IMG/VR virus record: IMGVR_UViG_3300020160_003718
Coordinates: 1 to 54,673 of that record
Reading direction: 5' to 3' (one strand)
DNA from: a virus
Taxonomy: Duplodnaviria > Caudoviricetes
DNA length: 54,673 bases
A model generated the notes under the pieces. That model had not been told where the DNA came from and did not search any database. It was given only the letters and a program-made list of their open reading frames with translations. Position numbers and translations under genes: made by a program. Positions 1,364 through 51,845 of this stretch are shown piece by piece; position 1 is the first letter of the stretch, and the number at the start of each line of letters is the position of its first letter.

Positions 1364-1426
1364 TTTTAGATTTAAGCAGGGGTAGTTTTATTATTGAAAT
1401 AAACAGGTTAACATGGTATAATTTAT

Positions 1427-1801: not shown

Positions 1802-1838
1802 TTGTTATATAATATTATGTCGTAAAGGCTATTTATAG

Positions 1839-1844
1839 GTGTAA
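1839..1844 (+). promoter_or_regulatory. GTGTAA motif (putative late promoter, near-leaderless)
   Basis: GTGTAA, 8 nt, then the ATG at 1853; no SD sequence. Confidence 0.55.
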
Positions 1845-1852
1845 ATAGTTTT

Positions 1853-2404: not shown

Positions 2405-2410
2405 AAAATT

Positions 2411-2866
2411 ATGCAAAATTTTTTCACGCCTGAGCAAAAAGCTCAATATGAGGATGCGTTTGAATCTTTGCATGAATCCTTCGGTAGAGATGTGATTATA
2501 ATAAAAGAGTCAAAGCGCGTCATAGTTTCTACATCTGATTCTTCTTATAATTATTTTTATTCAGACGATAGTCAATCTTCAGTGCAGGAGACTATTATTC
2601 CTGTTTCTGGCGTTTTTAAAATGCGAGTGATGTGGCAGGATCCAAGTCGTGAGGCGTCTTCCTCTCAAGATGGCATGGACGCAGTTAGACCAAAAATTCA
2701 TGATAATTTATGTAGATTAAAAATGAGAAAAGATGCTTATGATTTCATAAATGGTTATAAGCAATTCATTGTTGATGAAAAAAAGTGTGACTGGGTTGGT
2801 TTTTCTAAGCCGCATGGAATAATTACTCCAAATTTTTATACCGTAATACTGAAAGAAGTAAATTGA
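2411..2866 (+). CDS. Putative head-closure (stopper) protein
   Basis: Size, beta-rich pattern and position in the canonical neck gene order. Confidence 0.35.
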   Translation: MQNFFTPEQKAQYEDAFESLHESFGRDVIIIKESKRVIVSTSDSSYNYFYSDDSQSSVQETIIPVSGVFKMRVMWQDPSREASSSQDGMDAVRPKIHDNLCRLKMRKDAYDFINGYKQFIVDEKKCDWVGFSKPHGIITPNFYTVILKEVN

Positions 2867-2869
2867 ACC

Positions 2870-3457
2870 ATGGCTGAGATTGATTATAAAAGATTAAATA
2901 TCAATATTGGGAAGTTCAAAGTTGTTAAAGATGCAGCTCTTGAGATTGCCGAAAGTAAGCTTAGCGACTCCAGAAAAGAATTCTTGCGGGAATTTTCGTC
3001 CCATCCTGTGACTGTTGAAATAGAAGCTGGAGAAAACGCTAGAAATTCGTCCGGAACACTTGGCGGTTATGGTAATCTTTTTTCTTTTATTGGTTTTCAA
3101 TCTGGCTCAAAGCCCGCCGAGGCTGTTAAATCATTAATAAATAAAATAAGGCTGATCAGGAAGTCCTATATCAAGCCCGAGGCAAATGGAACTTTGATTA
3201 AATTTAACGTCTTGTCTCCTAAAAAGTCTGATTTTGAAGATGCAACGCCTATTCCGTGGGCGGCTGGCAGAAGCTGGTTGACGGGAATAGAGAGGGGCAT
3301 TAGTGGCTTGGGGTATTTCATATCCAGAGTTGGCATTGGAAGATCTGAGGGCGGTCAGCAGTCCGATGATAAAATTAGACAATCTTCTTTTAAAAATGTT
3401 TCTTATTTTTCAAAAATGTATTCTGATTTCTTCAAGAAACTTGTAAGTAATAAATAA
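2870..3457 (+). CDS. Putative neck/tail-completion protein
   Basis: Basic 195-aa protein in the third neck position. Confidence 0.35.
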   Translation: MAEIDYKRLNINIGKFKVVKDAALEIAESKLSDSRKEFLREFSSHPVTVEIEAGENARNSSGTLGGYGNLFSFIGFQSGSKPAEAVKSLINKIRLIRKSYIKPEANGTLIKFNVLSPKKSDFEDATPIPWAAGRSWLTGIERGISGLGYFISRVGIGRSEGGQQSDDKIRQSSFKNVSYFSKMYSDFFKKLVSNK

Positions 3458-3462
3458 CTAAT

Positions 3463-4314
3463 ATGAAACCTTCCTTTATAAACGAATTATCTGCATCATT
3501 TTTAATGTTTGTTGATCATCAGGTTTGTTATAATGCCGAGGGATTTTCAAATGTTGTGAGTGGTAAGTTGTATCCATCCACCGATACTTCTTTTGGAAAT
3601 TCAACAATATATCAGTCCGAGTATAGGCAGTGGGTTTCTGACGTGAGTATTTCTGGAGTCAATGGAACTGTTGCCAATTCAATAAATTATGGAGCAACTG
3701 TAATCGACAAATTGCAGAGTGGTTTAAAAATAGACTACGGAATGGGTAGAGTTTTTTTGGATGATTCGTTTCCTAAAAATTTAACAAATTTGACAGCTTC
3801 ATTCTCTAGAAAAGAATTTAATGTATTCCTCACTTCTAAAGATGAAATGCAATTGGTGATGGGTGATCCAATTTCTTATACTCAAGCCGCAACTGGCATG
3901 AGTAAAAGCACTGAGCCATATCCATTGGTTTATATTAAAAATTTTTACAGCGAAAATAATCCTTTTGCATTTGGTGGAATGGATGAGTCGCAATATGAGT
4001 TTAGATGCACTGTGCTGTCGGACAATGCTTTCAAGCTTGATTCTATCAATTCTACATTGCAAGATTGCGCAAGAAAAGATTTTTCTGTGATACCTTCTTC
4101 TGGTATACCATTCAATGTGTTTGGAGATTTTAAAAATATAGCCGCGCCGTATAATTATTTTGATTTGTGTTCTCAGTTTTCAAACAGATCGGCCTATATA
4201 GACTCTGTTAAGATTTCAAAATTTGATGAAAAAATGAACAAGGTTATTAAGGATGGTGTTTGGGGCGGCTTTGTTGATTTTAAAGTAAAAACGCTCAGGC
4301 ACCCAAGAATTTGA
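3463..4314 (+). CDS. Putative tail terminator/completion protein
   Basis: Immediately upstream of the major tail gene; YPLVYI...FRCTVLSD pattern resembles tail-terminator folds. Confidence 0.4.
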   Translation: MKPSFINELSASFLMFVDHQVCYNAEGFSNVVSGKLYPSTDTSFGNSTIYQSEYRQWVSDVSISGVNGTVANSINYGATVIDKLQSGLKIDYGMGRVFLDDSFPKNLTNLTASFSRKEFNVFLTSKDEMQLVMGDPISYTQAATGMSKSTEPYPLVYIKNFYSENNPFAFGGMDESQYEFRCTVLSDNAFKLDSINSTLQDCARKDFSVIPSSGIPFNVFGDFKNIAAPYNYFDLCSQFSNRSAYIDSVKISKFDEKMNKVIKDGVWGGFVDFKVKTLRHPRI

Positions 4315-4398
4315 AATTAATATTCCCAACTTACGGTTTGGAATGTAATTTAGAATATATTTTCATTTAAAAACAATAAAATAAAATAAAATAAAATT

Positions 4399-5493
4399 AT
4401 GGCAAGAAATCGTATCATTTATCAAAGTTTAGCTCTTTATGCTGGACAAACTGGCGTCAGCGCAATGCATACCGGCGACGGCACAATAAAACAACTTACG
4501 CGAGTTCAAAGCTGGGACTCTGATTTTTCAAGAAATTTCACCGATATTAACCAGTATGGTCAACTTGCCGCTATCGATCGTATTGAGGTTGAAGCTCCTA
4601 CTGTGAACATGAGTGCTTCATGGTATCCAACAGACGGATCAAATGAAAAATATATTGGTCTTAGCGTGTGTGCTTCTGGCGCTGCGCCAACAGCATTATT
4701 ATCTGGTATTCTTAAGAAAGAAACAGATGAAAAGAATTATTTCTTGACAGTTGCGAACGAGGGAAGCGATGCTGTTAATTACAGCAATGTGAAAACTGGT
4801 GTTTTTGGCGTTGGTAATTGCTTTTTAACATCTTATTCTTTAGAAGCTTCAGTTGGAGATGTCCCGACGGCGAGTGCCGACTTCGAGGCTCTCAACTTTG
4901 CAGTTTATTCGCAAGCTACTGCAATAAGCCCAGTTCCGTCAATTAATGCAGCTAGTGGAACTAAGATTACAGGATCTTATTTTAAACTTCCAGTGGCTAC
5001 GCAAAATGACAACAGTAGCCAGGTTACGGTTCTTAGACCAGGTGACATTACTTTTGCTTTGACAAATAATCAAGTTAAAGGTTTCGATTCTAGCGATATA
5101 AAAATCCAAAGCTTTACTTTATCAACTGATTTGGGCAGAACTCCAATTGAAAAACTTGGAAGCCGTTTTCCGTTCAGTAGAGAAATTGATTTTCCTATTA
5201 CGGCTTCGCTTTCTGTCGAGGCTCAAATGGGGGATTTGAGTGATTTCAATTTGGCTGATCTTCTTTGCGAAACTGGGTTTTATGATATAGCAATTACTCT
5301 TAAGAAGAATGATTGTTCCGGCGCTGGTGCTCCGGCAATTTTGGCACAAATTAAGGGAGCTAAATTGTTGTCTGAAAATGTTTCTACTTCAATTGGCGAC
5401 AATGCATCTGTCACACTTGAATATGAAGCAAGTATCAGTGGTCCAGAAGACTTAACAAAGGGCGTGTTTATTTCTGGTAGCTATCCAGCGTAA
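4399..5493 (+). CDS. Major tail (tube) protein
   Basis: Beta-rich 364 aa with two tube-like halves (RVQSWDSDFSRNFTDINQYG; IQSFTLSTDLGRTPIEKLG). A-rich leader, strong terminator, located upstream of the chaperone-position genes and TMP. Confidence 0.7.
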   Translation: MARNRIIYQSLALYAGQTGVSAMHTGDGTIKQLTRVQSWDSDFSRNFTDINQYGQLAAIDRIEVEAPTVNMSASWYPTDGSNEKYIGLSVCASGAAPTALLSGILKKETDEKNYFLTVANEGSDAVNYSNVKTGVFGVGNCFLTSYSLEASVGDVPTASADFEALNFAVYSQATAISPVPSINAASGTKITGSYFKLPVATQNDNSSQVTVLRPGDITFALTNNQVKGFDSSDIKIQSFTLSTDLGRTPIEKLGSRFPFSREIDFPITASLSVEAQMGDLSDFNLADLLCETGFYDIAITLKKNDCSGAGAPAILAQIKGAKLLSENVSTSIGDNASVTLEYEASISGPEDLTKGVFISGSYPA

Positions 5494-5516
5494 ATAATAT
5501 ATTAAATTAATACAAG

Positions 5517-5547
5517 AAAAGAGCCGAGTAAAATCGGCTCTTTTTTT
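5517..5547 (+). terminator. Intrinsic terminator (potentially bidirectional)
   Basis: AAAA-GAGCCGA-gtaaaa-TCGGCTC-TTTTTTT. Confidence 0.9.
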
Positions 5548-5574
5548 ATTTATTGTTCTATTTTTTTTATATCG

Positions 5575-5580
5575 GTGTAA
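5575..5580 (+). promoter_or_regulatory. GTGTAA motif (putative late promoter)
   Basis: Directly after the terminator and before ORF 5642. Confidence 0.55.
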
Positions 5581-5641
5581 TAGTTTATAGGTAATTGTTG
5601 GTTAATGGTAATTTAATAGGTTTTAAAAGGTTATTGGTTTT

Positions 5642-5875
5642 ATGCAAAAATTTGAATTTTATTTTGATAAATTTCTTTCGCAAAAAGTTGAAAAAGAAGT
5701 GAAGTATGTTTTTATTTCTCATTTGTTATATATTGAGGAATTAATGAATAGGGGCGCTATATCTGAAGATGAATATAACTCAAAAAGAAAAGAAACTTTA
5801 GATAAGGGAAATGCGGCAATAAGAAATATTAATGAACAAATTGATTCGATTTTTTCGAATTTAGAATTAGTTTGA
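5642..5875 (+). CDS. Hypothetical protein
   Basis: 77-aa helical ORF. Confidence 0.65.
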   Translation: MQKFEFYFDKFLSQKVEKEVKYVFISHLLYIEELMNRGAISEDEYNSKRKETLDKGNAAIRNINEQIDSIFSNLELV

Positions 5876-5928
5876 CTATAATAAAATTGATTTAAAAATA
5901 AAACAATAAAAAGGTAAAAAGGAAAATT

Positions 5929-6759
5929 ATGACAAACAAGCAAGGCAAATATTTATATTCATTCAATTCAACTGACGCGCAGGGGAAGGATAGAAAATTC
6001 TGCATTCTTAAACCAACTAGAAAAATGAAGGAAGATGGCGAGCTTTATTATGCTTCAAAACTTTCTCAGTTTATTTCTTCTGGAATCCTCCCAAAAATTG
6101 TTTGGGATAAGATTTTTAAGGATAATGGCGGCATTATTTCAGAAACTGATAAAAAAGAATATTCGGATTTGTTCATTCAGCTTTCCGAGTTGAGAAACTC
6201 CATCAATTCTCTTTCTGTTAAATTAGAAAAAGATAGAACCGAGCAGGAGCAATTTAAGATAGAGGTATTGGAGGGTCAAGCTATCGAAGCTAGAAAAAGA
6301 ATGCAGGAACTTGAAATGTCTCAGATTAATGCATTTGAAAATACGGCAGAAGCAAAGGCCAGAAATCGCACAATTGTTTGGTGGGCTGCTACATTAGCCA
6401 CTGAAGAGCTAGAAGATGGGGTTAATAACTCAATTCTTGGTTCTGGATCCGTCGATGAAAAATTGGATAATTATGAACTAATTGTTGAAAATGATGAATT
6501 TTTAACAGATGTTTTTTCTAGAATTAACTACCTTGTCACTGTATGGTACCTTGGAAGCGCTTCATCTGCTGAAGATTTCAAGTCACTTGACGAGGAATAC
6601 GTAAACCGAATCAAGTCGGAGCAGGAAGCTCTTGCGGAACCTGAAAAATTAGAAGATAAAGTTGAAACTGTTGAGGATGTAAAGCTTGAAGCTGAAGCTC
6701 CTTCATCGGTTTTTGTCGATGAGATTCAAGTTGTTAATTTTACCGAAGCAAGTTTGTAA
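5929..6759 (+). CDS. Putative tail assembly chaperone
   Basis: Acidic coiled-coil protein between the tail tube gene and the TMP; positional call. Confidence 0.4.
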   Translation: MTNKQGKYLYSFNSTDAQGKDRKFCILKPTRKMKEDGELYYASKLSQFISSGILPKIVWDKIFKDNGGIISETDKKEYSDLFIQLSELRNSINSLSVKLEKDRTEQEQFKIEVLEGQAIEARKRMQELEMSQINAFENTAEAKARNRTIVWWAATLATEELEDGVNNSILGSGSVDEKLDNYELIVENDEFLTDVFSRINYLVTVWYLGSASSAEDFKSLDEEYVNRIKSEQEALAEPEKLEDKVETVEDVKLEAEAPSSVFVDEIQVVNFTEASL

Positions 6760-6788
6760 TTAATTTAGCGCTACTTGCGCTATAAATT

Positions 6789-7838
6789 ATGGAATTTGAT
6801 GAAATACAACGACTCTATTCCAAAATATGCGCTGGATATGAGAAACTTATTATAGACAATAAGGAATGTTATTTTAAACATCACCTTTATCTTGATAGGG
6901 TCAAATTAAAAGATAAATACAATCTTGGCATATCTGTCGCAAGAGATAACGGCATCAAAACAGAAAAAGAGTATCTAGAGTTTTATATTGACAAGGGGTG
7001 GTGGTCTAAGTCAAAAGAGGATGAAATTAGAACCCTGTCGTCCTTTGTTGAAAGTTTAAAGAAAAGCAAGGAAAAACTTATTCTGCCATCTCAAAAAGAG
7101 CAGATTGCCAGAACAATTATAGAAGAGCAAGAGAAGCTTAATTCTGTTTTGGCAGAAAGAAGAACCATTATACCAATGACAGCTGAGGAATATGCAGATA
7201 AATATTATAATAAGTTTTATTTATATTGCTCTTTGTTTGAAGATCGGGACTTTTTAAATCCATTTGTTGAAAATCCAGATTATTTTCTTGAGATAGATGA
7301 AGATTTATATAATGATATTTGGAATAAGGTGTTGGGCGTTATTTCTTTTTTAAAATTAGAAAATATAAAATATCTCGCAGCTACTGGTTTTTTTCAAAAT
7401 TTGTTGATGTTGTGCGGCAAGGAAATGTCCGCTTTTGATTTTTATGGAAAGCCTGTTGTTTCTTTAACTGTTAATCAATCAGATTTATTTTCATACGCAT
7501 CCAATTACAGAAGATCTATTAATAATGCCACTGAGCAAATTCCAGATTATATACTGAGCAACCCAGAGAGTTTAATAGAGTGGTGCGAGGGCGGAAGCGG
7601 ATCAACCGCAAGAGCAAAGCAAATTTTAGATAGAACGCCAAATAAAAATAAAACCAAGGGTGAGAGGAGCGGTAGAATAAGTTCTATTGTTGGGGCAAGT
7701 GCCTCGGATTATAAAAAATTAGGAATTGGCGGTGTTGCAACCGAGGGTTCGGATTTACTTTCAGATGCTAAAAATTCTGGTGGAGAAATGGATATAAATC
7801 AAGTTGTTAGAAAAACAGATAATCTTAAAATAAAATAG
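6789..7838 (+). CDS. Putative tail assembly chaperone (pre-TMP)
   Basis: Helical 349 aa directly upstream of the TMP; positional call. Confidence 0.4.
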   Translation: MEFDEIQRLYSKICAGYEKLIIDNKECYFKHHLYLDRVKLKDKYNLGISVARDNGIKTEKEYLEFYIDKGWWSKSKEDEIRTLSSFVESLKKSKEKLILPSQKEQIARTIIEEQEKLNSVLAERRTIIPMTAEEYADKYYNKFYLYCSLFEDRDFLNPFVENPDYFLEIDEDLYNDIWNKVLGVISFLKLENIKYLAATGFFQNLLMLCGKEMSAFDFYGKPVVSLTVNQSDLFSYASNYRRSINNATEQIPDYILSNPESLIEWCEGGSGSTARAKQILDRTPNKNKTKGERSGRISSIVGASASDYKKLGIGGVATEGSDLLSDAKNSGGEMDINQVVRKTDNLKIK

Positions 7839-7902: not shown

Positions 7903-10900
7903 ATGGCTGACAATTTAACTACGGCAACTATTGATGTAAGAGCAAATACAAGGGGTATGGAGAGAGATATCCTGAAGGCTCTTCAAACTGTTGAACTTTC
8001 ACAAATCAATACAAAGAAGAGTTCTCAGGCTTTGGGTAGGATTACGGGTCAAGTTTCTGAATTCAATAAGAGTTTAGAAGCGTCTAATGCTCGCGTTGTT
8101 GCTTTCGGGGCATCTGCTGGAGCTATTTTTGCGGTAGAAAAGGCTCTTTCGTCCTTGATATCCTCGACAATAAATGTTCAAAAGCAACTGGCTGACGTGA
8201 ACGTGTTGCTGAATCTTTCTTCTTCTAGTTTGGAAAAATTTGGAAGTAGTCTTTTTGATATAGCTAGAAACACAGCTCAATCTTTTTCGGAGGTTGCTAC
8301 GGCGGCAACAGAACTTTCACGTCAAGGCTTAGGGGTTGAAGAAACATTAAAAAGAACTAATGCCGCTCTTATTTTAACCAGGTTGAGTGGTTTAGATGCA
8401 AAATCTAGCGTTGAGGCGTTAACAGCTACTCTGAATTCATTTTCTGGGTCGGCTTTAGACGCGGTTGAGGTTGTTAATAAGCTGGCAAATGTGGACGCGG
8501 CTTTTGCTGTTAGTTCCGCTGATTTGGCTAACGCTATTAGTAGAGTTGGTTCTACCGCTGTTGACGCTGGCGTTTCATTAGATGAATTAATTGCTTTAGT
8601 TACTTCTGCTCAACAAACAACTGCTCGTGGTGGCGCTGTTATCGGTAACTCATTTAAAACAATTTTTACACGTTTGCAACGTGGAAAGGTTCAGGATTTG
8701 CTTGGTAGTCTTGGGGTTGATACTACTGAGGGACAAAGCGCAATTAGTTTGCTTCAGCAGCTGGCTTCTACTTATGATACTCTGGGAGCGTCTCAAAAAT
8801 CTTATGTAGCGGAACAAGTTGGTGGTGTTTTCCAAATTAACATTTTAAAAGCTGCACTTTCTGACCTCGGTAAAGAGTACAGTATATATGGTAGAGCGCT
8901 TGATACTTCTTTGTCATCTACTGATGAGGCGATAAGAAGAAATGAACTTTTAAATAAAACTGTATCAGCTCTTTCCAGTCAAACTGTTGCAAGTTTAGAA
9001 GAAGCAGCAAATAAAATTGGAACAATCGTTTTTGAGCCAAATGCTAAAGGATTTTTATCTGGATTTAATAATTTGTTAGAATCTTTTAATAATATAGATT
9101 CAGAAAGTGCCGGTGGGAAATTAATGGAGGGATTTTTCAAAGGTGTTAGTAATTTTATAGGTGGACCTGGTGCGGTTTTGGCAACAGCAGTTTTGGTAAA
9201 ACTGTTTGCTAGACTTGGGCAATTCGCCGCTGGTTCAGCCAAGGAGTTGCTTGGGACAAATAAGGCTGCTCAGCAACAGGCAGCAATAGAGCAAAGTATA
9301 CTGAGTATCTTGCAGAAGAACAGTCAATTTACTAGTCAAATATTGGCTGGTAAAATGACAACCGTTCAAGCTGAAAAGCAGATGTTAGATTACTTGACCG
9401 CTCAATCAAATATTTTAAGAGAACAAGAGAGATTGAGTAAAGTTATAGGTGCCAATTTGGCAATGAAGGGCGTTTCCGTTGGAGCTTCTGGCATACCAAT
9501 GACTGCGCCCGCTAAAAAAACAAAAGCGGCTGCTTCTGGATATATTCCAAATTTTGCCACAGATATGGCAGTTGGTCAGGCAATGGAAAGTGCTGGAGCC
9601 AGAGAACATGGTTATAAGGCTGGAAAAGCGAGAAAAACAACCATCCACGATGGTAATGGAAAATCATTTAAATCTTTTGTTAATAATAAAGAAGATGTAA
9701 AGACCTTTACTAATGCTGCTGGTAAAAAGGCTACAGTAGTTCGTCCGCCAAATGGATTTGGTGAAAATACTCAATATGCGGCTGGTGGATTTGTTCCCAA
9801 TTTTGCTGAAAAAAGAATAGCATCTGTTTTCAAGTCTGGATCGTCTTTGAGGGGGCTTTATGATACTGGTCCAGTCTTTGATATGTATAATGATTCGGCT
9901 GTGCTGAAATATGAAAGCTTGCCTAAAAAATACGAAGAATATAGAAAAGAAGGTAGATTTATCTTTGAGGAAGCTAGAAAAATTTATAATAATTCGGGCA
10001 ATGATATAGGAAAAGCAAATTCATATATATCAAAAAGAATTCCTGGCGGTTTTTCAAAAAAATTAAGCAAAGAGTATTTTGATAAACCATTTTCTGAAAA
10101 CGCTATAAATCCAATAGTTGGAGCGTTAGGCGAAAAAGATTTTTTTTCTAATAATCCTGAATTTTCTAAATTGGAAGATTATGTTGGTCCAGATTTTAAA
10201 AAGGGAGATTTGTTTGCAGAGGTAAAAATTCTTAGAAAAAAAATTTCAGAAAAAAAACTTTTAGAAAAGGCGTTAAGGGGGGCGGCGTATTCTTCTCCTA
10301 AAAAAACATTTAAAAATGAAGATAGGGATGTTATCTCGCCAAATTTAATTTTTGCTTCCGCTATAAAAGAATCCATGTCTTCTGGATTTGTCCCAAATTT
10401 TGCTTCGATGGGTAGCAAATTCAAGGCTATGTATGGTGGTGGAACCACAATGCGCGCTGTTGATAAAGAAAAAACCGCAAAGAAGAAAAACCTTGATGTA
10501 AAAAAACTTGATTTATCAGATAGATATACAATGGTTCATGGCGGCAATCAGGGTCTTGAATCGGCTAATGTTTCGCTAGAGGCTGGCAATAAGTTATTTG
10601 ATGCTAAAATAGCAACGGCTGGACTGAACACCGCCGGAACCAATTTGCAAAGATATGGAATTAAGGGATTGGTGGGAGACGCTTTGGTTGGTGCTACTAA
10701 TAACATAATTAAAACTTTTGGCGGCACGGAGCAGATAACCGACGCTTCTTCGTTGGACAACGCTGGCTCTGTTGGCTCTGCCGCTGGAACAGTTTTCGAA
10801 ACTGCTTTAAGAAAAGCGTTCAATGCTCCTGCTGTAAGTCAAACTCAAAGAATAGATTTTCCAGCTCCAACTCCTGAACTTAAAAAGTTTTTCCACAATG

Positions 10901-13900
10901 CTCCAGGGCAATATGAGGCTAAAATATCAAGAACTCCAGATAATTTAAAAAGCGCATTGAAAAAGTGGGTGGATGTTAATGGTCTTGCGTCTTCGGCTTC
11001 TGGTTTTGTTCCTAATTTTGCAAAATCTGGATTGTCATTTTCTCATAAAGATAAGGATGAATTTGGTTTTAGTGAAATTCAAGCCATAATGAGCGGAAAA
11101 AAGGTTGGATCATTTAGTTATGCTGAAGATAAAAAAGGATTGGTAGATGTTGGCGACTTTTCTGTTAACAAGAGTGAAAGAGGCAAGGGTATAGGCACTG
11201 AACTTTATAAAGAAGCAATAAGAAGAAATAGGGGCAAAAAAATGAAGGGGCAATTGCTGCCTCAAATGAATAGGTTATTGCAAAAGATAAAAAATGGCGA
11301 ACCCGTCTCTGCTGAAACTTTATACCCGCAAATTAAAAGAGCGGATTTAGCGAAAAGTTCCATGTTTGAAGTATATGGTCATAAGGGCATGACTGTTGAA
11401 AAAATGACGAGAGATCAATTCTCTTCTTTTGTTAATGCTAAAATTTCAGAACTTAAAAAAGACCCAAAAAAATTACAAAGCTATTTCGGAAATGTGGAGG
11501 CTGACGAATATGGCGGTCTTGGGGTCGATTTACAAACCCAACATGCTTCTGGCTTTGTGCCAAATTTCTTAGATATAAAAAGGGATGGCAGTTTGCCATT
11601 TGGAGTTAGAGGAAGAGCTAATTTTTCAAAACCAGGCTCGAAATCAAGTATCCAATTGGGAGTTGGAGCAACTCCAGACACGTTATTTCATGAGGCTTCT
11701 CATTTGGCTTATTCAAAAGCCACAATGTCAAAAGCTAATTCCAATGAGGGAATTGGTAGGTTCATTTCAGATCCTAAAAAATACGCTGGTGTTTCGTCCA
11801 TAATGGCTTCTTCTATATTTAAGAATGTAAATCAAAATGAATTGTTCAAATCATTAGGCTTGAATCCTGTTCAGTTGGATTTTGATGGTAGAAACCCGGG
11901 AGCTACATATTCTGGTGCTAAAGCAGTTGATGAAATTACTACAAGAATACAGGAAAAAATATTTAAAAATAAGGGGGACTTAGCTTCTCTTTCCGCGAAT
12001 GAAAATGCTTTTATTAAAAATGTTGAAGGTCTTGGTATTATAAGTAATAAGCGCATGTCGAATGTGTCCAGAAGATCTGCTGAGGGTTCGAAATTTAGAT
12101 CTCTAATTGAGGGTCGTTTTTCTTCTGCCATGGGCGGTGCGGCTGGTGGCTTTGTTCCTAATTTAGCCGATCAGGTTAGGAAAAATATGTATGATTGGGA
12201 CGGTACTATTATCCCAACAATACGAGGCGGCGCGGATGAGTATATAAAGCAATTGGGCTCATTAAAAGAAAAAGATCTTCTTCCGATAGGCAAAAAATTA
12301 AAAGCTGGCAAGAAAAAGTTTGATATATTAACGAGTCGCCCGCCGCTTTTTGAAAAAGCTATAAGCGAAACATCTTCAAGGCTCGGACTTCCTGTTAATA
12401 AGATTAATTTTGGTGTTAAACCAAAGGATAAGATTGCTGAAGCTGGAAGACGTGGCTCTAAAATTGTTGACGATAATCTTGATTTAATAGGAAAACCTGG
12501 TTTTTTAAACGCTAGGGTAGTTAATAAAAGATTAAGCTCTGGTTTTGTTCCTAATTTTTCAAGTGCTCTTAATGACGCAATCGCAAGAGAACAATCATCC
12601 GGATTGTCCAAGAGCCAAATATATGTTGATAGCCATAGCTCTTTAAAGAATAAAAATAACCCAATGGGGTTAATGGTGGCAAATAGGCGCGATGAGCCAG
12701 GTGGCGGAATTCAGGGAATTAAAAGAGCTAAAAAAGAGGGCAGGAATCCGAAAACTTATGGCGCGGGGATGTCGTCTGGTTTTGTACCAAATTTCGCTTT
12801 CTTGGGTCGCAGTGAAGCTGAAACTTCCGAAATAAATTCTTTGCAAGGTGAACTAAAAAAAATAGATTCTGAAATAGCGAATAGAAAAGCTGAAATAAAA
12901 AGTCGGCAGAAGGAATTGGCGGCTCTTAGAAATGATTTGAAGAAGGGCGCGGGAAACGCGGAGGCAGTCAAGCAGACTACGGATTTAGAAAACGAAAATA
13001 AGGGATATGAGCAGGCTAAATTAAAAAATCCTCAACTAAGTGCCGGGATGGATTTTAAAATTGCTGAAAATAATAAAAAAATAGCAGATATAAGAAATCA
13101 GCAAGCTGAAGCTATAAAAAAAGAAATTGAATCTACATTAGATATTAATAGGCAAAATCGTGACTTATTAACTGAAAAAATTAAAGAATCCGAGGTTGTG
13201 AATCAAAATCTTTCTACCAAGAAAAAAGAAACAAGTAAACTTGGTAAGGTGAAAAATTTTGTTGGTGGTAATGCCATGACTTTGGGTTTTGGACTACAGT
13301 CCGTTGCCTCTATTGCTGGAGAATTTGCGGGGAATGATGACACTCAAGCTGGCAGAACAACAAAGGCAGTGTCTGGGGGAATTGGGGACATAGCTAGTTT
13401 TGCTGGAACTGGAGCAATGATTGCTGGTCCTTGGGGGGCTGCTGCTGGTGCATTAGTTGGATTAGGCAAAGCGGCAATAGATGTTACGAAGGCTTTTAAT
13501 ACAAAAGTTCCAGATTTAGAAAAAGCGCTTCGAACCTCTTCTGATTCAATGGGTAGATTTAGCGAATCTGGTCAAAAATTATTGACTTTGAATGAGCAAT
13601 ATGGAGACGCTTTGATGTCTGGAAATCCAGCTCAAGCAGCGGACATAATGGTTAAAACTCAGCAGGCTTATGCAGAAGAATTGAGTAAGCTCACTGAGGT
13701 TCAAAGAAGCTCAATGATCTCTGCAATAGCTCAGGGCAAGGGGCAGGAAGAATATGCTAAAATACTTGGCGAGATGCAAAATTCCGTCAAGGCTCAAGAA
13801 ACTGCCACTCAATTGACTAAATTTTCTGAAAGTGGCAGTATATTTTCAGCGCCAGATAAAAAACTTTTAGCGGGCATGGACAAAGGATTGGCTTTGGATT

Positions 13901-16900
13901 TTACAAAAGGTATGGATACTGCCTCCATAACGGCGGCTTTGGAAAAATCAGCGCCATCTCTTTCTGACGCAAATCGTGGCACTGAAAATCAAGCACTAGA
14001 CTTGATGAAAAATTTAGCCAGCTCAGATTCTCTTACTGGAGATCAAAAAGAAAATTTGAATAAAATGATAGAGGCTTTTTCAAATGCTGCAGAAAATACT
14101 GATTTGAGCGCCGTTGCTGAAGGTTTTATAAAAAGTATAAAAGACAAGCCGAAATCTGACGCGGATGTTAAAAAGGCTCAGCAAGCTGCTAAGGTTGAAC
14201 TTGAGGCTAGAGCAGCGAAGGTGAAAAAAGAAATAGAAATAAGAGAGAAGACAAATGCGATGTTGATAAAGCTTCAATCGGATACTGAAGCTGTATACCA
14301 AAGATACAATAACTCAATGGAGGATTTTATTTCGTCCATACAGACCGCTTCCGAGATGATGGGCGCTGCTGGTCAGTTTAGGGAGGAATATTTGGCTCAA
14401 TCTGGGGCTAATAAGAATATTACAGACCCTATTAAAGAAAAAAATATAGTAAATAAAAGTAATGCTGATTTAAAGGTTGGGGTATATAAATCTCAACTAG
14501 ATACTAGTAAAAATTTCAACGAGGGAGTTAAAAGTTTATTATCTGGATTAGAAGCTGATTCGGCAAAAGCTGCAGTTGGGCAATCTGCAAGCGATCAATC
14601 AAGTCAATTTTTAGAGATGAAATCAAAACTTGAGCAGGCTCTTCTGCCTGTTGAAGAAATGATCACTAGCGGAAATTATGAAGGTGCCAAATCTAAAACT
14701 CAAGAGGTATTTGATCAGTTAAAACCGGAGGAAAGGACTGCAATTGGCGAAGATAAGATTGTTGGGGCGGTTAAGCAGCTGAATTCTGGAATTGATAAAG
14801 GTTCAAGAAGTCAAGATTTACTTGCTAAAAACTCGCAAAAAGATTTAGCTATCCAAGCCCAGCAGCTTGTATTTCAAAAAGCGATGACTAAGCTTACTCA
14901 GGCTCAAAATTTTGGAGGAACTTCTAATCAAATATTGGGCAATACTGAAGATTCACCATTTAATAAGGCTATTGAGGCTGTTACCAATGCTAAAATAATG
15001 GGATATAATCAAGCTGGATTGAAGCAAGGTAAAGAAAGCGCAGTTGAGGGCGGAGATAGGGAATCTTGGGGGGTGGATGGTAAAAAACCAAGTAATGCAA
15101 CGGCTGAGCAGATAGTGAATTTTTATAAGGCTGCTGGGGAGATTGGTGGGCAGTCAGTAATGTCAACCGAATCAAAAGATTTTGCAGCATTGATTCAGGC
15201 GCTAAGAGAGGAAAAGAGAAAAAAACTTGACGAACTTAAAGGAGCTGGTGAGGGAGTTGTAGATCAATCGGTATTTACAAGATTGGAAACGATCTTAGCC
15301 ACACTTGGCGGAGGTGATCAAGTTGCCAAAATGAAGCTAACAAACGAGTTGGGAGTTGCTAATTTTACTGGTAAACAAATACAAGATGAAGCATTGAAGG
15401 GATATACTGGCAGCGCTTTCCAGGGTTTAAATCCAGATCTTAAAAAAGCATTTGTAAATACCAGCGATGAAGGCGCGTCGGCTACATTTTTATTGCTTGC
15501 TGACCAGAAAAACCAAACGGCATCAATTCTTACTGGTCAAACTGCTCAAACAGATTCGCTTAATCAGGGGTTACAAGCTATAGTGAGCGCAGGCTTGGAT
15601 CAAAATGGTATATTGGCAGAACAACCTTCCGCTATAGCTCAAGCAATTGGAGCAATATTAGAAAAAGGTAGAGCCGAGCAAAAACAGGATCAATCGGTTC
15701 AAAAAGTTGCAGACTTAGTTGGCCAGGGGGAGAAGGTTGGTGCAACTATAGCGCAGAATGAGCAGTTGATATCGGAAGCAAGAACTAAATATGACGAAAT
15801 TGTTAAAAGTACAGGTTTTTCAGAAGAAGATTTAAAAGATGGAGAAAAATTAAAACAGGCTCAATCGTTTTTTCAGGGAAGAGGCAGGACAGAGTATATA
15901 GCGGAAGAATCAAAAAAAACAGGTAGGGCGCTTTCTCAATCTGATTATCAAAATAAATACGGAAAAACGGGATCTCTTGAAGAAAGAAGAAAAGGATATG
16001 TTGCGCAGCAATGGGATGAGCAAGCTAAACCTAATCAAGATTTTATAAATGCGGTAGAGGCTTTTAAGATGGCTCAAGAGCAATCAAAAATTATTAAAGA
16101 AAAAACAGGCGAAAATCAGGGTCTTACTAGTACAAAGCAGGAACTCAAAGCAAAGGAGATGACTGAAAGAAGTGCTCTGACTAAAATTATAAATGAAGAA
16201 GTAAACCCAAAAAGAAAACTTGCGGAAGTAGCTCAAAATACAATTTTAAATGAGCGTAGAACTGGGGGTCAAACTTACCTTGATAAGAACGAAGCTGCAA
16301 GGCAAGAAGCTGCCAAAAAGAAAGCTCTTGCGGAAAATCTTGGAATGCAGGATGGGGGAGATCTTACAACTGAACAACAAAAGAAAAATAAAGCCAGAAG
16401 TCAAGGACGTGGATTGGCAACCCCATCAGAACTTACTTTTAATAAGTTCAGTGGCAAAATGGATACATTCGAAAATGCTGCTATGCTTGAATTTGGTGGA
16501 GCTAATAACAAGTCTTTTGATAAGTTAATAAGTCAACAGGCTTTGCCAAGTTTTGAAAATTTTGCATCAGTATATGAAAAATTGGGAGGTGAAGGTAAGG
16601 GGCGAGAGTTTTACCAACAAACGAGGGCGGAATTGTTTGGAGCTGAAAAAACTGTGACTAAGCCAGCTGCTCCAGCTGCTCCAACTGCAACTACTCCTGA
16701 AAGCGTAAGTCAGGGAACTGCTGCCGCTATGGATCTTGAAAAGCGCAAGAAGAGCGAAATTGACAGTTTGATGCAGAAATATACAAAATATGGACAAGAT
16801 GGTAAAATGACATTTAATCCAAGAAATGGATTTGAATCTCAAGTAGAGCAAGAAGCATTCAATACAGAACTTGCAAATTTAAAGAAACAGCAAAGAGGAT

Positions 16901-17340
16901 ATACTTTAGAAAATGTTGGTGCCACTGGTCCAAATGTACAAGGAGCAACAACAAAAACTCAAGAACCTGCGGCAGCTCAAAAAACCAAACAAGAAGAGCA
17001 AAAGAAGCCTGAAACTGAAAAAGCGCAAGATCCTTCTCAATTAATTTCTAATATTTTAACAACTGTTAATCAAATAGCGGCGCAACTGCAAAAACAAGTT
17101 GCTCCAGCCGCAGCTGCTAATGGACAAGCTGGTGCTGTGGGACCAGTTAGCGTGAGTACGCCAGTAAACCTTTCAATAAACTCTACAGCTGGTGAAAATA
17201 AAACTGAAGTAGCAAGTGTTGCTGATCAAATAAAAAATGGCATATCTCAATTCTTTTCATCTCCAGAATTTCTGGAAAGAGTTACTACAATTGCAAAAAC
17301 TGCAGCTGGTAATCCTCCCCCTCCAAAGTCAATAGTGTAA
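7903..17340 (+). CDS. Tail tape measure protein with an internal array of enzyme-like modules
   Basis: N-terminal TP901-type TMP core (LFDIARNTAQSFSEVATAATELSRQG; RGGAVIGNSFKTIFTRL), long Ala/Gln/Lys helical regions, a Gly-zipper hydrophobic segment (GAMIAGPWGAAAGALVG) and canonical position. Confidence 0.92.
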   Translation: MADNLTTATIDVRANTRGMERDILKALQTVELSQINTKKSSQALGRITGQVSEFNKSLEASNARVVAFGASAGAIFAVEKALSSLISSTINVQKQLADVNVLLNLSSSSLEKFGSSLFDIARNTAQSFSEVATAATELSRQGLGVEETLKRTNAALILTRLSGLDAKSSVEALTATLNSFSGSALDAVEVVNKLANVDAAFAVSSADLANAISRVGSTAVDAGVSLDELIALVTSAQQTTARGGAVIGNSFKTIFTRLQRGKVQDLLGSLGVDTTEGQSAISLLQQLASTYDTLGASQKSYVAEQVGGVFQINILKAALSDLGKEYSIYGRALDTSLSSTDEAIRRNELLNKTVSALSSQTVASLEEAANKIGTIVFEPNAKGFLSGFNNLLESFNNIDSESAGGKLMEGFFKGVSNFIGGPGAVLATAVLVKLFARLGQFAAGSAKELLGTNKAAQQQAAIEQSILSILQKNSQFTSQILAGKMTTVQAEKQMLDYLTAQSNILREQERLSKVIGANLAMKGVSVGASGIPMTAPAKKTKAAASGYIPNFATDMAVGQAMESAGAREHGYKAGKARKTTIHDGNGKSFKSFVNNKEDVKTFTNAAGKKATVVRPPNGFGENTQYAAGGFVPNFAEKRIASVFKSGSSLRGLYDTGPVFDMYNDSAVLKYESLPKKYEEYRKEGRFIFEEARKIYNNSGNDIGKANSYISKRIPGGFSKKLSKEYFDKPFSENAINPIVGALGEKDFFSNNPEFSKLEDYVGPDFKKGDLFAEVKILRKKISEKKLLEKALRGAAYSSPKKTFKNEDRDVISPNLIFASAIKESMSSGFVPNFASMGSKFKAMYGGGTTMRAVDKEKTAKKKNLDVKKLDLSDRYTMVHGGNQGLESANVSLEAGNKLFDAKIATAGLNTAGTNLQRYGIKGLVGDALVGATNNIIKTFGGTEQITDASSLDNAGSVGSAAGTVFETALRKAFNAPAVSQTQRIDFPAPTPELKKFFHNAPGQYEAKISRTPDNLKSALKKWVDVNGLASSASGFVPNFAKSGLSFSHKDKDEFGFSEIQAIMSGKKVGSFSYAEDKKGLVDVGDFSVNKSERGKGIGTELYKEAIRRNRGKKMKGQLLPQMNRLLQKIKNGEPVSAETLYPQIKRADLAKSSMFEVYGHKGMTVEKMTRDQFSSFVNAKISELKKDPKKLQSYFGNVEADEYGGLGVDLQTQHASGFVPNFLDIKRDGSLPFGVRGRANFSKPGSKSSIQLGVGATPDTLFHEASHLAYSKATMSKANSNEGIGRFISDPKKYAGVSSIMASSIFKNVNQNELFKSLGLNPVQLDFDGRNPGATYSGAKAVDEITTRIQEKIFKNKGDLASLSANENAFIKNVEGLGIISNKRMSNVSRRSAEGSKFRSLIEGRFSSAMGGAAGGFVPNLADQVRKNMYDWDGTIIPTIRGGADEYIKQLGSLKEKDLLPIGKKLKAGKKKFDILTSRPPLFEKAISETSSRLGLPVNKINFGVKPKDKIAEAGRRGSKIVDDNLDLIGKPGFLNARVVNKRLSSGFVPNFSSALNDAIAREQSSGLSKSQIYVDSHSSLKNKNNPMGLMVANRRDEPGGGIQGIKRAKKEGRNPKTYGAGMSSGFVPNFAFLGRSEAETSEINSLQGELKKIDSEIANRKAEIKSRQKELAALRNDLKKGAGNAEAVKQTTDLENENKGYEQAKLKNPQLSAGMDFKIAENNKKIADIRNQQAEAIKKEIESTLDINRQNRDLLTEKIKESEVVNQNLSTKKKETSKLGKVKNFVGGNAMTLGFGLQSVASIAGEFAGNDDTQAGRTTKAVSGGIGDIASFAGTGAMIAGPWGAAAGALVGLGKAAIDVTKAFNTKVPDLEKALRTSSDSMGRFSESGQKLLTLNEQYGDALMSGNPAQAADIMVKTQQAYAEELSKLTEVQRSSMISAIAQGKGQEEYAKILGEMQNSVKAQETATQLTKFSESGSIFSAPDKKLLAGMDKGLALDFTKGMDTASITAALEKSAPSLSDANRGTENQALDLMKNLASSDSLTGDQKENLNKMIEAFSNAAENTDLSAVAEGFIKSIKDKPKSDADVKKAQQAAKVELEARAAKVKKEIEIREKTNAMLIKLQSDTEAVYQRYNNSMEDFISSIQTASEMMGAAGQFREEYLAQSGANKNITDPIKEKNIVNKSNADLKVGVYKSQLDTSKNFNEGVKSLLSGLEADSAKAAVGQSASDQSSQFLEMKSKLEQALLPVEEMITSGNYEGAKSKTQEVFDQLKPEERTAIGEDKIVGAVKQLNSGIDKGSRSQDLLAKNSQKDLAIQAQQLVFQKAMTKLTQAQNFGGTSNQILGNTEDSPFNKAIEAVTNAKIMGYNQAGLKQGKESAVEGGDRESWGVDGKKPSNATAEQIVNFYKAAGEIGGQSVMSTESKDFAALIQALREEKRKKLDELKGAGEGVVDQSVFTRLETILATLGGGDQVAKMKLTNELGVANFTGKQIQDEALKGYTGSAFQGLNPDLKKAFVNTSDEGASATFLLLADQKNQTASILTGQTAQTDSLNQGLQAIVSAGLDQNGILAEQPSAIAQAIGAILEKGRAEQKQDQSVQKVADLVGQGEKVGATIAQNEQLISEARTKYDEIVKSTGFSEEDLKDGEKLKQAQSFFQGRGRTEYIAEESKKTGRALSQSDYQNKYGKTGSLEERRKGYVAQQWDEQAKPNQDFINAVEAFKMAQEQSKIIKEKTGENQGLTSTKQELKAKEMTERSALTKIINEEVNPKRKLAEVAQNTILNERRTGGQTYLDKNEAARQEAAKKKALAENLGMQDGGDLTTEQQKKNKARSQGRGLATPSELTFNKFSGKMDTFENAAMLEFGGANNKSFDKLISQQALPSFENFASVYEKLGGEGKGREFYQQTRAELFGAEKTVTKPAAPAAPTATTPESVSQGTAAAMDLEKRKKSEIDSLMQKYTKYGQDGKMTFNPRNGFESQVEQEAFNTELANLKKQQRGYTLENVGATGPNVQGATTKTQEPAAAQKTKQEEQKKPETEKAQDPSQLISNILTTVNQIAAQLQKQVAPAAAANGQAGAVGPVSVSTPVNLSINSTAGENKTEVASVADQIKNGISQFFSSPEFLERVTTIAKTAAGNPPPPKSIV
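9538..12795 (+). repeat. Eight dispersed in-frame copies of peptide G[FY][VI]PN[FL] inside the TMP
   Basis: Copies at 9538, 9787, 10384, 11002, 11551, 12148, 12541 and 12778 (aa 546, 629, 828, 1034, 1217, 1416, 1547, 1626), each preceded by AS, SS or AG. Confidence 0.95.
17335..17340 (+). promoter_or_regulatory. GTGTAA motif overlapping the TMP stop codon
   Basis: GTGTAATAGTTTA, identical over 13 nt to the copy at 5575; ATG follows at 17347. Confidence 0.5.
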
Positions 17341-17346
17341 TAGTTT

Positions 17347-18987
17347 ATGAATTTTCAAGATGTAAAATTGCTGACTTACGACCACAAAAATAATTTTTGG
17401 GGCAATAATGCTTTTAAATATGGTTCTACAGTTTCATTTTCAATCAATGGATATATTCTTGATTTGTCAAATACTTCTGGAGTTAATGATATTTTTCAAG
17501 CTTGTAAAAGTTTGTCAGATTCACTGGGTTCTTATCAAGAAATAATTGTAAATAGTGTCAATTATGGAATAGGGAAAATTACTGATGTTTCTTTTGATTC
17601 TGGAAATTGGGTAAAGGTAACTGAGTATAATGTTTCAATACAAATAGTTCAAGAGGGTGATTTGGTTTCTTTTACTGGAGATGAGTTTGATGGGGGCATA
17701 ATATCAAGTATTAAGTCTTCTGCGGAGTATTTGGAGGAATTCACTGAGTCTTATTCATGCGATTATTCTTCTAATGATAATTCCGTATCTGGAACTCACT
17801 CTATTGATGTTAGGTTATCAACTCTTTTTTCTGGAGACAAGATTGATTTTGCAAAAAACTTGGCGGCTGTTCTTTTTTCAAAAACATTTCTTGAAAAATT
17901 ATCTGAAATAACTTATTCAAAACCACCAGAATCAACTAGAAAAGATTATTATTCTGAAAATTATGATTTAATCAGCGGGGCGTGTGGATTTAAAAGAAGT
18001 TTTTCATTTGTAAATTCAACTGATTGTTTTTCGAAAAAACGTTCAATAAATTTGAGTTTTGGCGAAGATGGCATAACCAATGTGACTGAATCAAATTCAA
18101 TCAAGGGTGAGTGCTTGAGTCCAACGCTGTTTGACTCTGCCGAAGCAGGATTTCAATCTGAAATTTCTGGTGTTTTTTCTAGATGTTTGGCAGTTTTTAA
18201 TACATACAAAGCATCCTTTGGCATACAGAATGATCTTATAAATAAAGAATTAGATAGGGGCATCAAAAGAAATAAATTTTCTGGAGAGATTGAATACAAT
18301 GTTTCTTTTACGAATGATAAAAGAAGAAAAAATGATTATACTTTTGAATATACTTTGGATTTATCTAGGTCAGAGGATGGAATTTGGGAGGCTGTTGAAG
18401 CTGGCTCAGTTAGGGGTAATGATGTGATTGGCTCAGCGGCTAAATTTAATAAAGCAATTGCTGGTTACAATACTGAAAAAACTGGAATTTTGAGCAGATT
18501 GGACGCCTTTTATGCTGGAGCAAGTCCGAAACCAGTTGGCGCAACTTTAAAATTAATAACTAAAAATTTAGGATATCAGCCATATGAAGGCGTTGTATCA
18601 TACAGTTGGTCAACTACAGATGACTTGACACTGGATATGTCTAGCGATATTAGAAGAAAAATAATAGAAATAACTGATTCTAAGGCTACTAGAATTCATA
18701 ATGATTTTCTTATTCCAGGCGGTGTTACGACTTATGCGATTGCTCAAGTTGCAAATCAGTCAAAGCAGGGCGAAAGGGATATCAAGGGCGATTTAGAAAT
18801 ATCTAGTTCGCAGCTTCCATTTGTTGGAAATACTTATTTTCAAAATTGCGTTACCCTGGCAAATGATAATAAAGGCACTGGAACTGACATGTATTTAGAG
18901 TCTTTTTCTTTTTCGTCCGATGAAATTGAGCAAAATGTTAATTTTAATGCCAAGTATAAATATTCTGAAGCTGCATCTGTCAGTTAG
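17347..18987 (+). CDS. Putative tail-tip/distal tail protein
   Basis: First gene after the TMP; repeated beta modules with N.FSGEIEY..SFTND-type segments. Confidence 0.55.
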   Translation: MNFQDVKLLTYDHKNNFWGNNAFKYGSTVSFSINGYILDLSNTSGVNDIFQACKSLSDSLGSYQEIIVNSVNYGIGKITDVSFDSGNWVKVTEYNVSIQIVQEGDLVSFTGDEFDGGIISSIKSSAEYLEEFTESYSCDYSSNDNSVSGTHSIDVRLSTLFSGDKIDFAKNLAAVLFSKTFLEKLSEITYSKPPESTRKDYYSENYDLISGACGFKRSFSFVNSTDCFSKKRSINLSFGEDGITNVTESNSIKGECLSPTLFDSAEAGFQSEISGVFSRCLAVFNTYKASFGIQNDLINKELDRGIKRNKFSGEIEYNVSFTNDKRRKNDYTFEYTLDLSRSEDGIWEAVEAGSVRGNDVIGSAAKFNKAIAGYNTEKTGILSRLDAFYAGASPKPVGATLKLITKNLGYQPYEGVVSYSWSTTDDLTLDMSSDIRRKIIEITDSKATRIHNDFLIPGGVTTYAIAQVANQSKQGERDIKGDLEISSSQLPFVGNTYFQNCVTLANDNKGTGTDMYLESFSFSSDEIEQNVNFNAKYKYSEAASVS

Positions 18988-18993
18988 GTGTAA
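18988..18993 (+). promoter_or_regulatory. GTGTAA motif (putative late promoter)
   Basis: Immediately after the stop at 18987 and before ORF 19024. Confidence 0.5.
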
Positions 18994-19023
18994 TTTTATA
19001 CAGGTAGTAAAAGGTTTAAAAGG

Positions 19024-20646: not shown

Positions 20647-20647
20647 T

Positions 20648-22606: not shown

Positions 22607-22645
22607 TTAATTTGATATTGAATATGAAAATTTTAAAATAAGTTT

Positions 22646-25078: not shown

Positions 25079-25080
25079 CT

Positions 25081-26202: not shown

Positions 26203-26206
26203 TTTT

Positions 26207-34042: not shown

Positions 34043-34113
34043 AGTTTGTTAATTTTATTTATTTGATAATAGTTAAAATATCTATTATTGTATAATCACA
34101 TTTAATTATAAAC

Positions 34114-45152: not shown

Positions 45153-45190
45153 TTGACATGTTTATAAAAAAACAATACTCTGCATGAGCA

Positions 45191-51844: not shown

Positions 51845-51845
51845 C

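Follow-up and report, generated by a model that had tools for sequence, protein, structure and literature searches.

The tail tape measure protein (TMP) encoded in the IMG/VR virus record IMGVR_UViG_3300020160_003718 carries, between a TP901-type core and a long helical region, an array of seven mutually unrelated segments joined at eight copies of one short motif, [AS][SG]G[FY][VI]PN[FL]. The stretch analysed here, referred to below as the window, comprises 54,673 bp of viral DNA and is rated 37% complete. The architecture is spread through a family of related TMPs in which modules are exchanged between conserved flanks, the modules of the window are under purifying selection, signature residues of several of them are conserved, and the motif is all but confined to TMPs. 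On balance, and by a small measure, we favour the view that the array is an exchangeable cargo borne by the TMP, with the motif as its junction signal, and that the modules are delivered to the host.

TMPs are known as the length rulers of phage tails and sometimes carry a wall-degrading domain. That the window protein is a TMP of the TP901 type, as a first sequence-only reading had proposed, is supported by sequence comparison. PF10145 (the PhageMin_Tail core) matches aa 122-308 (E 8e-24, 85.1 bits against a Pfam cut-off of 33.2), TMP families in PHROGs are matched strongly (phrog_4211, E 1.7e-42; phrog_14917, E 3e-34), with four TMP PHROGs covering the first 350-800 residues, and the N-terminal core (N-core) matches 135 records of cultured phages, all at less than 60% identity. 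Among the 25 N-core matches listed, 24 are annotated as TMP or minor tail protein, and the annotated relatives, 23-30% identical in sequence, come for the most part from large siphophages of Bacillus, Lactococcus and Mammaliicoccus. The C-terminal half contains Gly-rich hydrophobic stretches at aa 1789-1810 and 1825-1859 (nt 13267-13479), and a family profile run against PDB chains matched coiled coils (SMC at E 7.7e-8 and chemoreceptor at E 1.1e-5), which it did solely in the C-terminal part. A Gly-zipper match in the Pfam scan was present in one relative (P0066), not in the window protein. The motif array is placed between the PF10145 core and the Gly-rich hydrophobic stretch, and differs from its flanks in composition, with 4.1% Pro against 0.7% and 2.3%, and with more aromatic residues. 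At an assumed rise of 0.15 nm per residue, the whole TMP would span 472 nm, and 309 nm if the array is left out.

The sequence-only reading had reported eight copies of the motif. A recount returned exactly these, at aa 544, 627, 826, 1032, 1215, 1414, 1545 and 1624, with copy-to-copy spacings of 83, 199, 206, 183, 199, 131 and 79 aa (Table 1); the span of 9538-12795 given there for the array runs from the Gly of copy 1 to the end of copy 8. From the composition of the TMP, 0.00033 copies of G[FY][VI]PN[FL] would be expected by chance, against the eight observed. Synonymous codons differ among the eight copies, which places the conservation at the protein level and argues against a recent DNA repeat. 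Across 1165 copies from 240 relatives the consensus is A-[AS]-[SG]-G-[FY]-[IV]-P-N-[FY]-A, and under the pattern applied G, P and N do not vary. Neither the N-core nor the ~1500-aa C-terminal half of the window TMP contains the motif. Outside TMP open reading frames (ORFs), six-frame translation of 814,737 nt of flanking DNA yielded a single copy, in an ORF beside a TMP.

The motif also marks every module boundary, which bears out the earlier claim that domain edges coincide with it. Three apparent cases of 'fused' modules lacking the motif (C+D in L004, H+F in L005 and core+A in L002) were rejected, the joints bearing a variant in which Asn is replaced by Ser. In both AlphaFold models of the array the motif stretches have a pLDDT below 50 and no secondary structure. 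Since the motif lies in apparently unstructured linkers and is the sole feature shared by all joints, we read it as a short linear signal, predicted to be recognised by some partner.

Table 1. Coordinates of the tape measure gene, its parts and its upstream neighbours (nucleotide positions in the window; aa positions in the TMP).
Feature	Position	Strand	Length or extent	Remarks
Candidate tail tube protein, upstream of TMP	4399..5493	+		PF18906 Phage_tube_2, E 0.005, 16.9 bits, under cut-off 27
Two ORFs at tail-assembly-chaperone position	5929-6759, 6789-7838	+		Position only, no family match
TMP gene	7903..17340	+	3145 aa	Single open frame
N-terminal TP901-type core	7903..9531	+	aa 1-543	PF10145 part, nt 8266-8826
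Motif copy 1	9532..9555	+		ASGYIPNF
Segment 1 ('A' unit)	9556..9780	+	75 aa	Framework; cluster in 83/231 relatives
Motif copy 2	9781..9804	+		AGGFVPNF
Segment 2	9805..10377	+	191 aa	Accessory; PD-(D/E)xK-like signature (GALGEKD ... GPDF ... AEVK); 14/231 relatives
Motif copy 3	10378..10401	+		SSGFVPNF
Segment 3 ('C' module)	10402..10995	+	198 aa	Near-universal; PD-(D/E)xK-like signature (GTVFE ... IDF ... YEAK)
Motif copy 4	10996..11019	+		ASGFVPNF
Segment 4	11020..11544	+	175 aa	Accessory; GNAT acetyltransferase-like; 43/231 relatives
Motif copy 5	11545..11568	+		ASGFVPNF
Segment 5	11569..12141	+	191 aa	Accessory; HExxH (HEASH); 21/231 relatives
Motif copy 6	12142..12165	+		AGGFVPNL
Segment 6	12166..12534	+	123 aa	Accessory; small HAD-phosphatase-like (YDWDGT ... 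TSRP ... K ... VDDN); 13/231 relatives
Motif copy 7	12535..12558	+		SSGFVPNF
Segment 7 ('Z' unit)	12559..12771	+	71 aa	Most conserved framework module; 196/231 relatives, 84/87 locus TMPs
Motif copy 8	12772..12795	+		SSGFVPNF
C-terminal half	12796..17337	+	aa 1632-3145	Long helical region; coiled-coil profile matches

Family spread and module exchange

Judged by sequence, the architecture belongs to a large family of uncultured phages. The 1107-aa array region was the query of a full HMMER scan, in which each hit is the representative of a 50%-identity cluster and which gave 499 representatives at E<=1e-3, 321 at 1e-10 and 45 at 1e-30. The best 150 of the 499 are nearly all 1400-4500 aa long and contain 0-12 copies of the motif (none in three proteins), with a mode of three. 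Of the IMG/VR stretches found by the motif pattern, 298 of 329 encode a relative of the Z unit. A word-indexed search returned 152 proteins, which are labelled 'TP901 family phage tail tape measure protein', 'hypothetical' or 'predicted GNAT family acetyltransferase', and a metagenome scan added four loci. Among 50,697 records of cultured phages, from which records close to the window may be missing, neither the array (blastn, tblastn) nor the Z unit (tblastn, E<=1) was matched. A first scan of GTDB species genomes found no locus and a second found one, on a contig of a metagenome-assembled genome (MAG); with this single MAG contig among bacterial genomes, there is no sign of prophages and no host assignment. 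The locus in question (L014), labelled Candidatus Neomarinimicrobiota, contains a 5940-aa motif-bearing open frame, and the sole motif copy outside a TMP lies in a 680-aa ORF immediately upstream of it; the TMP may be split here, or the contig may come from a phage and have been binned with the MAG.

The viral records of four close relatives (contigs L002-L005, records G001-G004) have CheckV completeness values of 43-70% for contigs of 64-134 kb, from which genomes of roughly 150-190 kb can be estimated, near the jumbo range for a siphophage. The phage is taken to be a large (~150-190 kb), uncultured and probably lytic siphophage.

The N-cores of these four relatives are 82-97% identical to that of the window, while their arrays differ from it. 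The order of modules is A,B,C,D,E,F,Z in the window, A,B,C,D,Z in L002 and A,X,C,X(485 aa),D,E,F,Z in L003; L004 and L005 carry other modules. More widely, 231 relatives cut at the motif yielded 973 segments in 146 clusters, 71 of them singletons, with a median segment length of 160 aa (5-95% range, 69-352), and 88 TMPs taken from their loci yielded 406 segments in 109 clusters. The GNAT module starts anywhere from aa 957 to 1766 among relatives and occurs twice in one of them (P0154). The region is thus far from invariant, with module number, order and identity all differing between conserved flanks. Between the window and L005, segment 6 is 98% identical at the amino-acid level with a synonymous divergence (dS) of 0.53, and segment 4 is 78% identical with a dS of 1.9, an inequality consistent with the exchange of cassettes one at a time. 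Compared with L002, L004 and L005, the C-terminal half shows only 36-45% identity against 90-97% for the N-core (36% against 97% in L002), and such unequal divergence makes the TMP gene a mosaic beyond the array.

The earlier notion of a variable cargo array applies to only part of this region. Segments 2, 4, 5 and 6 are accessory, but segments 1, 3 and 7 are near-universal and, from their distribution among relatives, are conserved framework and not variable cargo. The BLAST cluster of segment 3 covers 116 of the 231 relatives, and a hidden Markov model (HMM) iterated four times extends it to 166 of the 231 proteins and 58 of the 88 locus TMPs. Column conservation in segment 7 gives the near-invariant positions RE ... 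SQIYVD ... NPMGLMVANRRDEP ... GGxQGIxRA. Relatives are often simply core-A-C-Z-tail or core-C-Z-tail. In L010, L014, L051, L057, L071, L072, L075 and L085 the Z unit recurs, giving two or three copies separated by further modules, so that an array can run on past the first Z.

All modules of the window are under purifying selection: ratios of non-synonymous to synonymous substitution (dN/dS) are 0.02-0.18 in unsaturated pairs, a constraint as strong as that on the N-core (0.04-0.09). That the segments are mutually unrelated, as had been claimed, holds both for BLASTP (no similarity among the seven at E<=1e-3) and for profile-profile comparison with hhalign, in which all 21 pairs fell below 1% probability. 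Two candidate relationships, A and Z as repeats of one unit and segments 2 and 3 as related modules, were each rejected at an hhalign probability of 0.2%.

Predicted identities of the modules

The sequence-only reading had recognised catalytic signatures in five of the seven segments. This stood in so far as the GNAT is found by Pfam and the signature residues are conserved; the other identities came without a family match. GNAT was the only family that Pfam found on the seven segments. Segment 4 alone scores 23.9 bits against PF00583 (E 5.2e-5, cut-off 20.7) and falls to 19.1 bits, below the cut-off, in the context of the whole protein, and the match spans only model positions 38-89 of 116. 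In the acetyl-CoA loop R54-G55-x-G57, residues R54, G55 and G57 are at least 95% conserved in 42 sequences, and assignment of this segment as a GNAT is supported by sequence.

For segments 2 and 3 a PD-(D/E)xK pattern is partly supported, again at the level of sequence. Residues E110, D112, D130, E139 and K141 of segment 2 are at least 95% conserved in a family of 13 sequences reaching down to 21% identity, and in the 193 sequences of the segment 3 family G129 is conserved in 100%, F132 in 97%, E133 in 93%, D152 in 96%, K174 in 100% and K188 in 91%, with E or D two residues ahead of the Lys in the alignment rows listed. Partial support likewise attaches to the HAD pattern of segment 6, where all four HAD motifs are present and D10, D12, T14, T56, K89 and D102 are at least 95% conserved in 13 sequences down to 25% identity; a fold search contributed weak rows for HAD phosphatases. 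Segment 5 is a weak candidate for a zincin-type HExxH module. Its H41, E42 and H45 are conserved in all 21 homologues, no third zinc ligand was identified, and comparison with the Atlas gave LPD23 as a weak lead (score 0.91, the family being found on 18% of cluster members). The Atlas otherwise returned unnamed clusters for the segments, and no usable match for segment 3.

Structure prediction added little to these assignments. Two AlphaFold models of the array have mean pLDDT values of 56 and 52, and only segment 1, part of segment 2, the second half of segment 5 and parts of segments 6 and 7 rise above 60-70; the HExxH region of segment 5 stands at 29-44. Segment 1 was modelled at 65-86 as a helix with four strands. 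The models were of low confidence overall and gave no significant fold match with Foldseek or VIA-align. Segment 1 had no family match in Pfam, NCBIfam or PHROGs, and segment 7 none in the same three collections. The segments gave nothing below E 0.009 in NCBIfam and nothing below E 0.03 in PHROGs; among the profiles compared with PDB sequences, A1 and A2 yielded no meaningful match and A7 coiled coils alone. The marker domains of polyvalent proteins (ART-PolyVal, MPTase, LPD) were not found in the window protein at E<=1. With signature residues kept and family matches few, the enzyme identities are only partly supported.

Relatives extend the range of predicted activities. Pfam was run on 104 representatives of the 109 module types, five very long segments being left out, and the module types with a match are two GNATs and one homologue of staphylococcal nuclease (SNase, E 3.2e-6). 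Matches to PHROGs comprise polynucleotide kinase (PNK; two), phosphoheptose isomerase (two) and endonuclease (one). In one relative, P0066, the ADP-ribosyltransferase (ART) domain ART-PolyVal occupies aa 877-1037 (E 6.7e-25) and DUF7178 aa 1064-1260, and motif copies at aa 849, 1049 and 1335 bound the two domains exactly. This ART may have in DUF7178 a partner or an immunity-like module.

Embedded domains that degrade the cell wall are the classical cargo of TMPs. Two relatives bear such domains, a Phage_lysozyme at aa 2448-2572 of P0208 and an NlpC/P60 at aa 1677-1757 of P0094, which would be in keeping with modules that act in the cell envelope or periplasm during penetration, like the muralytic domains of other TMPs. 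Both, however, lie in the C-terminal half, outside the motif array, and GNAT, ART, nuclease, HAD or PNK-like modules need cofactors or substrates that are cytoplasmic. We consider an envelope role of the array very improbable.

Proposed delivery to the host and possible cleavage at the motif

Under the reading that we favour, the N-core, the A unit, the C module, the Z unit and the helical C-terminal half with its hydrophobic stretches would form a framework built into the TMP, and further modules would be inserted and exchanged at the motif-bearing joints. The modules would be carried in the tail of the virion, leave it ahead of the DNA, and act on host or incoming nucleic acids and proteins. 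In phage T5, a trimer of the TMP pb2 fills the tail lumen and is expelled upon receptor binding (PMC10038345). Since TMPs fill the lumen and are expelled at infection, we infer that the modules are virion-borne cargo, and the cofactors that they imply (acetyl-CoA, NAD+ and metal-dependent nucleic-acid chemistry) point to the cytoplasm as their place of action.

How the modules would be freed is a separate matter. The same source states that T5 pb2 is cleaved in tail morphogenesis, between a stretch of hydrophobic residues and a metallopeptidase motif, and that the lambda TMP is also cleaved (PMC10038345). The likeliest role of the junction motif would be that of a site of processing at which the modules are released, in the manner of a viral polyprotein, a proposal to which we give somewhat less than an even chance. 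Slightly less probable again is its full form, in which the TMP would be a polyprotein cut at the motif, after tail assembly or on ejection, into up to about a dozen free effectors that enter before the genome, the motif serving in addition as an in-frame joint for cassette exchange.

Several observations weigh against cleavage. Ser replaces Asn in 38 of 1716 copies of the motif, at joints that are otherwise normal (counted over 323 proteins, position 5 is N in 1669 copies, S in 38, A in 5 and another residue in 3), and Ser at ~2% of joints argues against any reaction dependent on an Asn side chain at each joint. A protease shared by the whole family was not found. The HExxH module was rejected as a general processing enzyme, being absent from L002, L004 and L005 and present in only 21 of the 231 relatives. 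A known protease site, that of the Prp type, ends in F|A; the Prp-type protease PF04327 is absent from all five related records, each of which is incomplete (37-70%). Tolerance of Ser and the want of a family-wide protease would suit modules that are never cut, as would the position of the motif in low-confidence linkers and its near-restriction to TMPs, expected of a partner specific to the tail. The modules would then be tethered beads on a TMP that forms the entry channel, acting at the site of DNA entry, and the motif would be an element for docking, packing or threading, which might attach to the wall of the tube, to a chaperone or to a factor of the host, or might enable modules to pass the channel unfolded. 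A mere hinge, however, would not need seven near-invariant positions, and the absence of the motif from the N-core and the C-terminal half argues against a general contact site for tube or chaperone. Furthermore, those TMPs that are known are processed (PMC10038345). We judge an uncut string to be rather unlikely. Prediction of a complex of three copies of motif-Z-motif scored 0.00 and favours neither side.

Other points weigh against delivery of cargo more generally. The phage is uncultured. Three folded 20-kDa domains at each level would be too big for a lumen of ~4 nm. Segments 2, 3, 5, 6 and 7 have no match below E 0.05 in Pfam, NCBIfam or PDB sequences and no PHROG match better than E 0.05, and most of segments 2, 3, 5 and 6 are of low confidence in AlphaFold. 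The HExxH homologues are all at least 60% identical, and their conserved residues carry correspondingly little weight. Among the 104 module types, 101 have no Pfam match at E<=1e-3. Lastly, the A, C and Z units may serve the tail itself and not an attack on the host.

Three of these points, the few named enzyme families (101 of 104 types matching none), the lack of confident globular folds in AlphaFold and an A, C and Z framework present in most relatives, would all be in keeping with modules that serve the virion, as filler or plug of the lumen, in length adjustment, in assembly or in holding the DNA end, for which a head-proximal position would be suitable. Residues that look catalytic would then be binding residues or relics. 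Such a structural need is hard to reconcile with accessory modules that come and go among relatives whose N-cores are 90-97% identical, and the enzyme families ART-PolyVal, GNAT and SNase belong to conflict systems. Full sets of signature residues are conserved down to 21-25% identity, and selection is specific to sequence and does not act on length alone. We hold a virion role for the array as a whole to be improbable; for the framework units a purely structural role is a better fit than for the accessory modules.

Genomic surroundings, known systems and significance

Around the TMP, the structural module of the window appears very remote from described phages. None of the ten neighbours in the tail region (962-7838 and 17347-26716) has a PHROG match and almost none has a Pfam match. 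The ORF listed in Table 1 as a tail tube protein is a weak call by sequence, with which the gene order agrees. Directly after the tail genes lies a GlcNAc-type glycosyltransferase on the minus strand (26722-27960), and two genes for sugar-nucleotide metabolism, UDP-galactopyranose mutase and GDP-mannose 4,6-dehydratase, are found on the plus strand at 40668-42736. A replication and recombination set, also on the plus strand (33071-35769 and 43373-48607), comprises the small and large chains of ribonucleotide reductase, a RecA-like protein, a DnaB helicase and a PDDEXK_1 nuclease. DNA polymerase III alpha is in pieces at 50057-53965 (plus strand), with NTPase and finger domains in ORF 50057-51844 and HHH_6 and OB domains in ORF 52685-53965; between them a 312-aa ORF (51846-52784) overlaps the second piece. 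This arrangement could be a split gene or the result of an inserted element. No tRNA genes were found in the window.

Delivery of several effector domains on a single polypeptide has proposed precedents outside tails. Polyvalent proteins, the nearest concept to the array, carry 2-15 unrelated conflict-type domains, including ARTs, zincin-like peptidases, nucleases and GNATs, are believed to reach the host along with the DNA, and have been proposed to release their domains by autoproteolysis (Iyer et al. 2017, PMC5512222). They are predicted there to be packed in capsids or sent via type IV secretion, and the word 'tape' is absent from the main text of that paper (PMC5512222). The array resembles them in setting many unrelated conflict-type domains on one polypeptide (in the window protein, the predicted GNAT with three or four signature-bearing modules), and the relative P0066 bears ART-PolyVal, the domain that defines the family. 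It differs in that its carrier is a TMP and does not belong to a capsid or conjugation context, in that a single conserved motif separates the domains, and in that most modules match no described family.

Effectors packed in the capsid and injected with the genome include T4 Alt and the T4 internal proteins, P1 Dar and the N4 virion RNA polymerase (vRNAP), as cited in PMC5512222. Such proteins share with the array the delivery of pre-made effectors that would act before phage transcription. MuF-fused polymorphic toxins are a further case, with variable toxin domains on a conserved part that targets them to the virion, as the variable modules here sit on a conserved carrier. Whereas all of these ride in the head, here the length ruler of the tail would carry many modules together.

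Among TMPs, T5 pb2 and lambda gpH offer the closest likeness, that of a lumen-filling, expelled protein with an enzyme, and in T5 cleavage splits off the metallopeptidase part (PMC10038345). Known cases, in contrast, undergo one cleavage and carry, close to the C-terminal end, one or two domains that degrade the cell wall, whereas the array is placed in the middle of the protein and has up to 11 or more non-muralytic modules, a universal junction motif and cassette exchange. The motifs of the TMP of mycobacteriophage TM4 are another example of an enzyme-bearing TMP. Viral polyproteins with conserved cleavage junctions, such as the 3C sites of picornaviruses, similarly hold unrelated units in one frame with a short joint sequence as their sole shared feature, and in the array too one short conserved motif stands at every joint. 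The array would, however, be a component of the virion and not a translation product made in the host. A literature search, which reached few subscription journals and no supplements, found no description of the motif or of a TMP-borne module array. Taken together, the array appears to combine two known kinds, the polyvalent effector protein and the enzyme-bearing TMP, with cargo and cleavage as the inferred parts.

At present such genes are annotated as 'tape measure' only or, misleadingly, as 'GNAT acetyltransferase'. From this family come over 100 types of module that are subject to purifying selection, very few of which belong to a known family, and since the motif marks the module boundaries, each can be cloned directly and screened for anti-defence function, toxicity or activity on nucleic acids. 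The motif itself is a sharply defined linear signal, whose partner could be a protease, the tube or a host factor. If the array is delivered cargo, the lumen of the tail would become a second compartment, besides the capsid, for pre-made effectors, with swapping built in. Should the polyprotein reading prove true, these TMPs would constitute a natural programmable scaffold for protein delivery and a reservoir of undescribed enzymes for anti-defence or host takeover; among the effectors would be nucleases and phosphatases, an acetyltransferase and an ADP-ribosyltransferase, together with many unknown folds.

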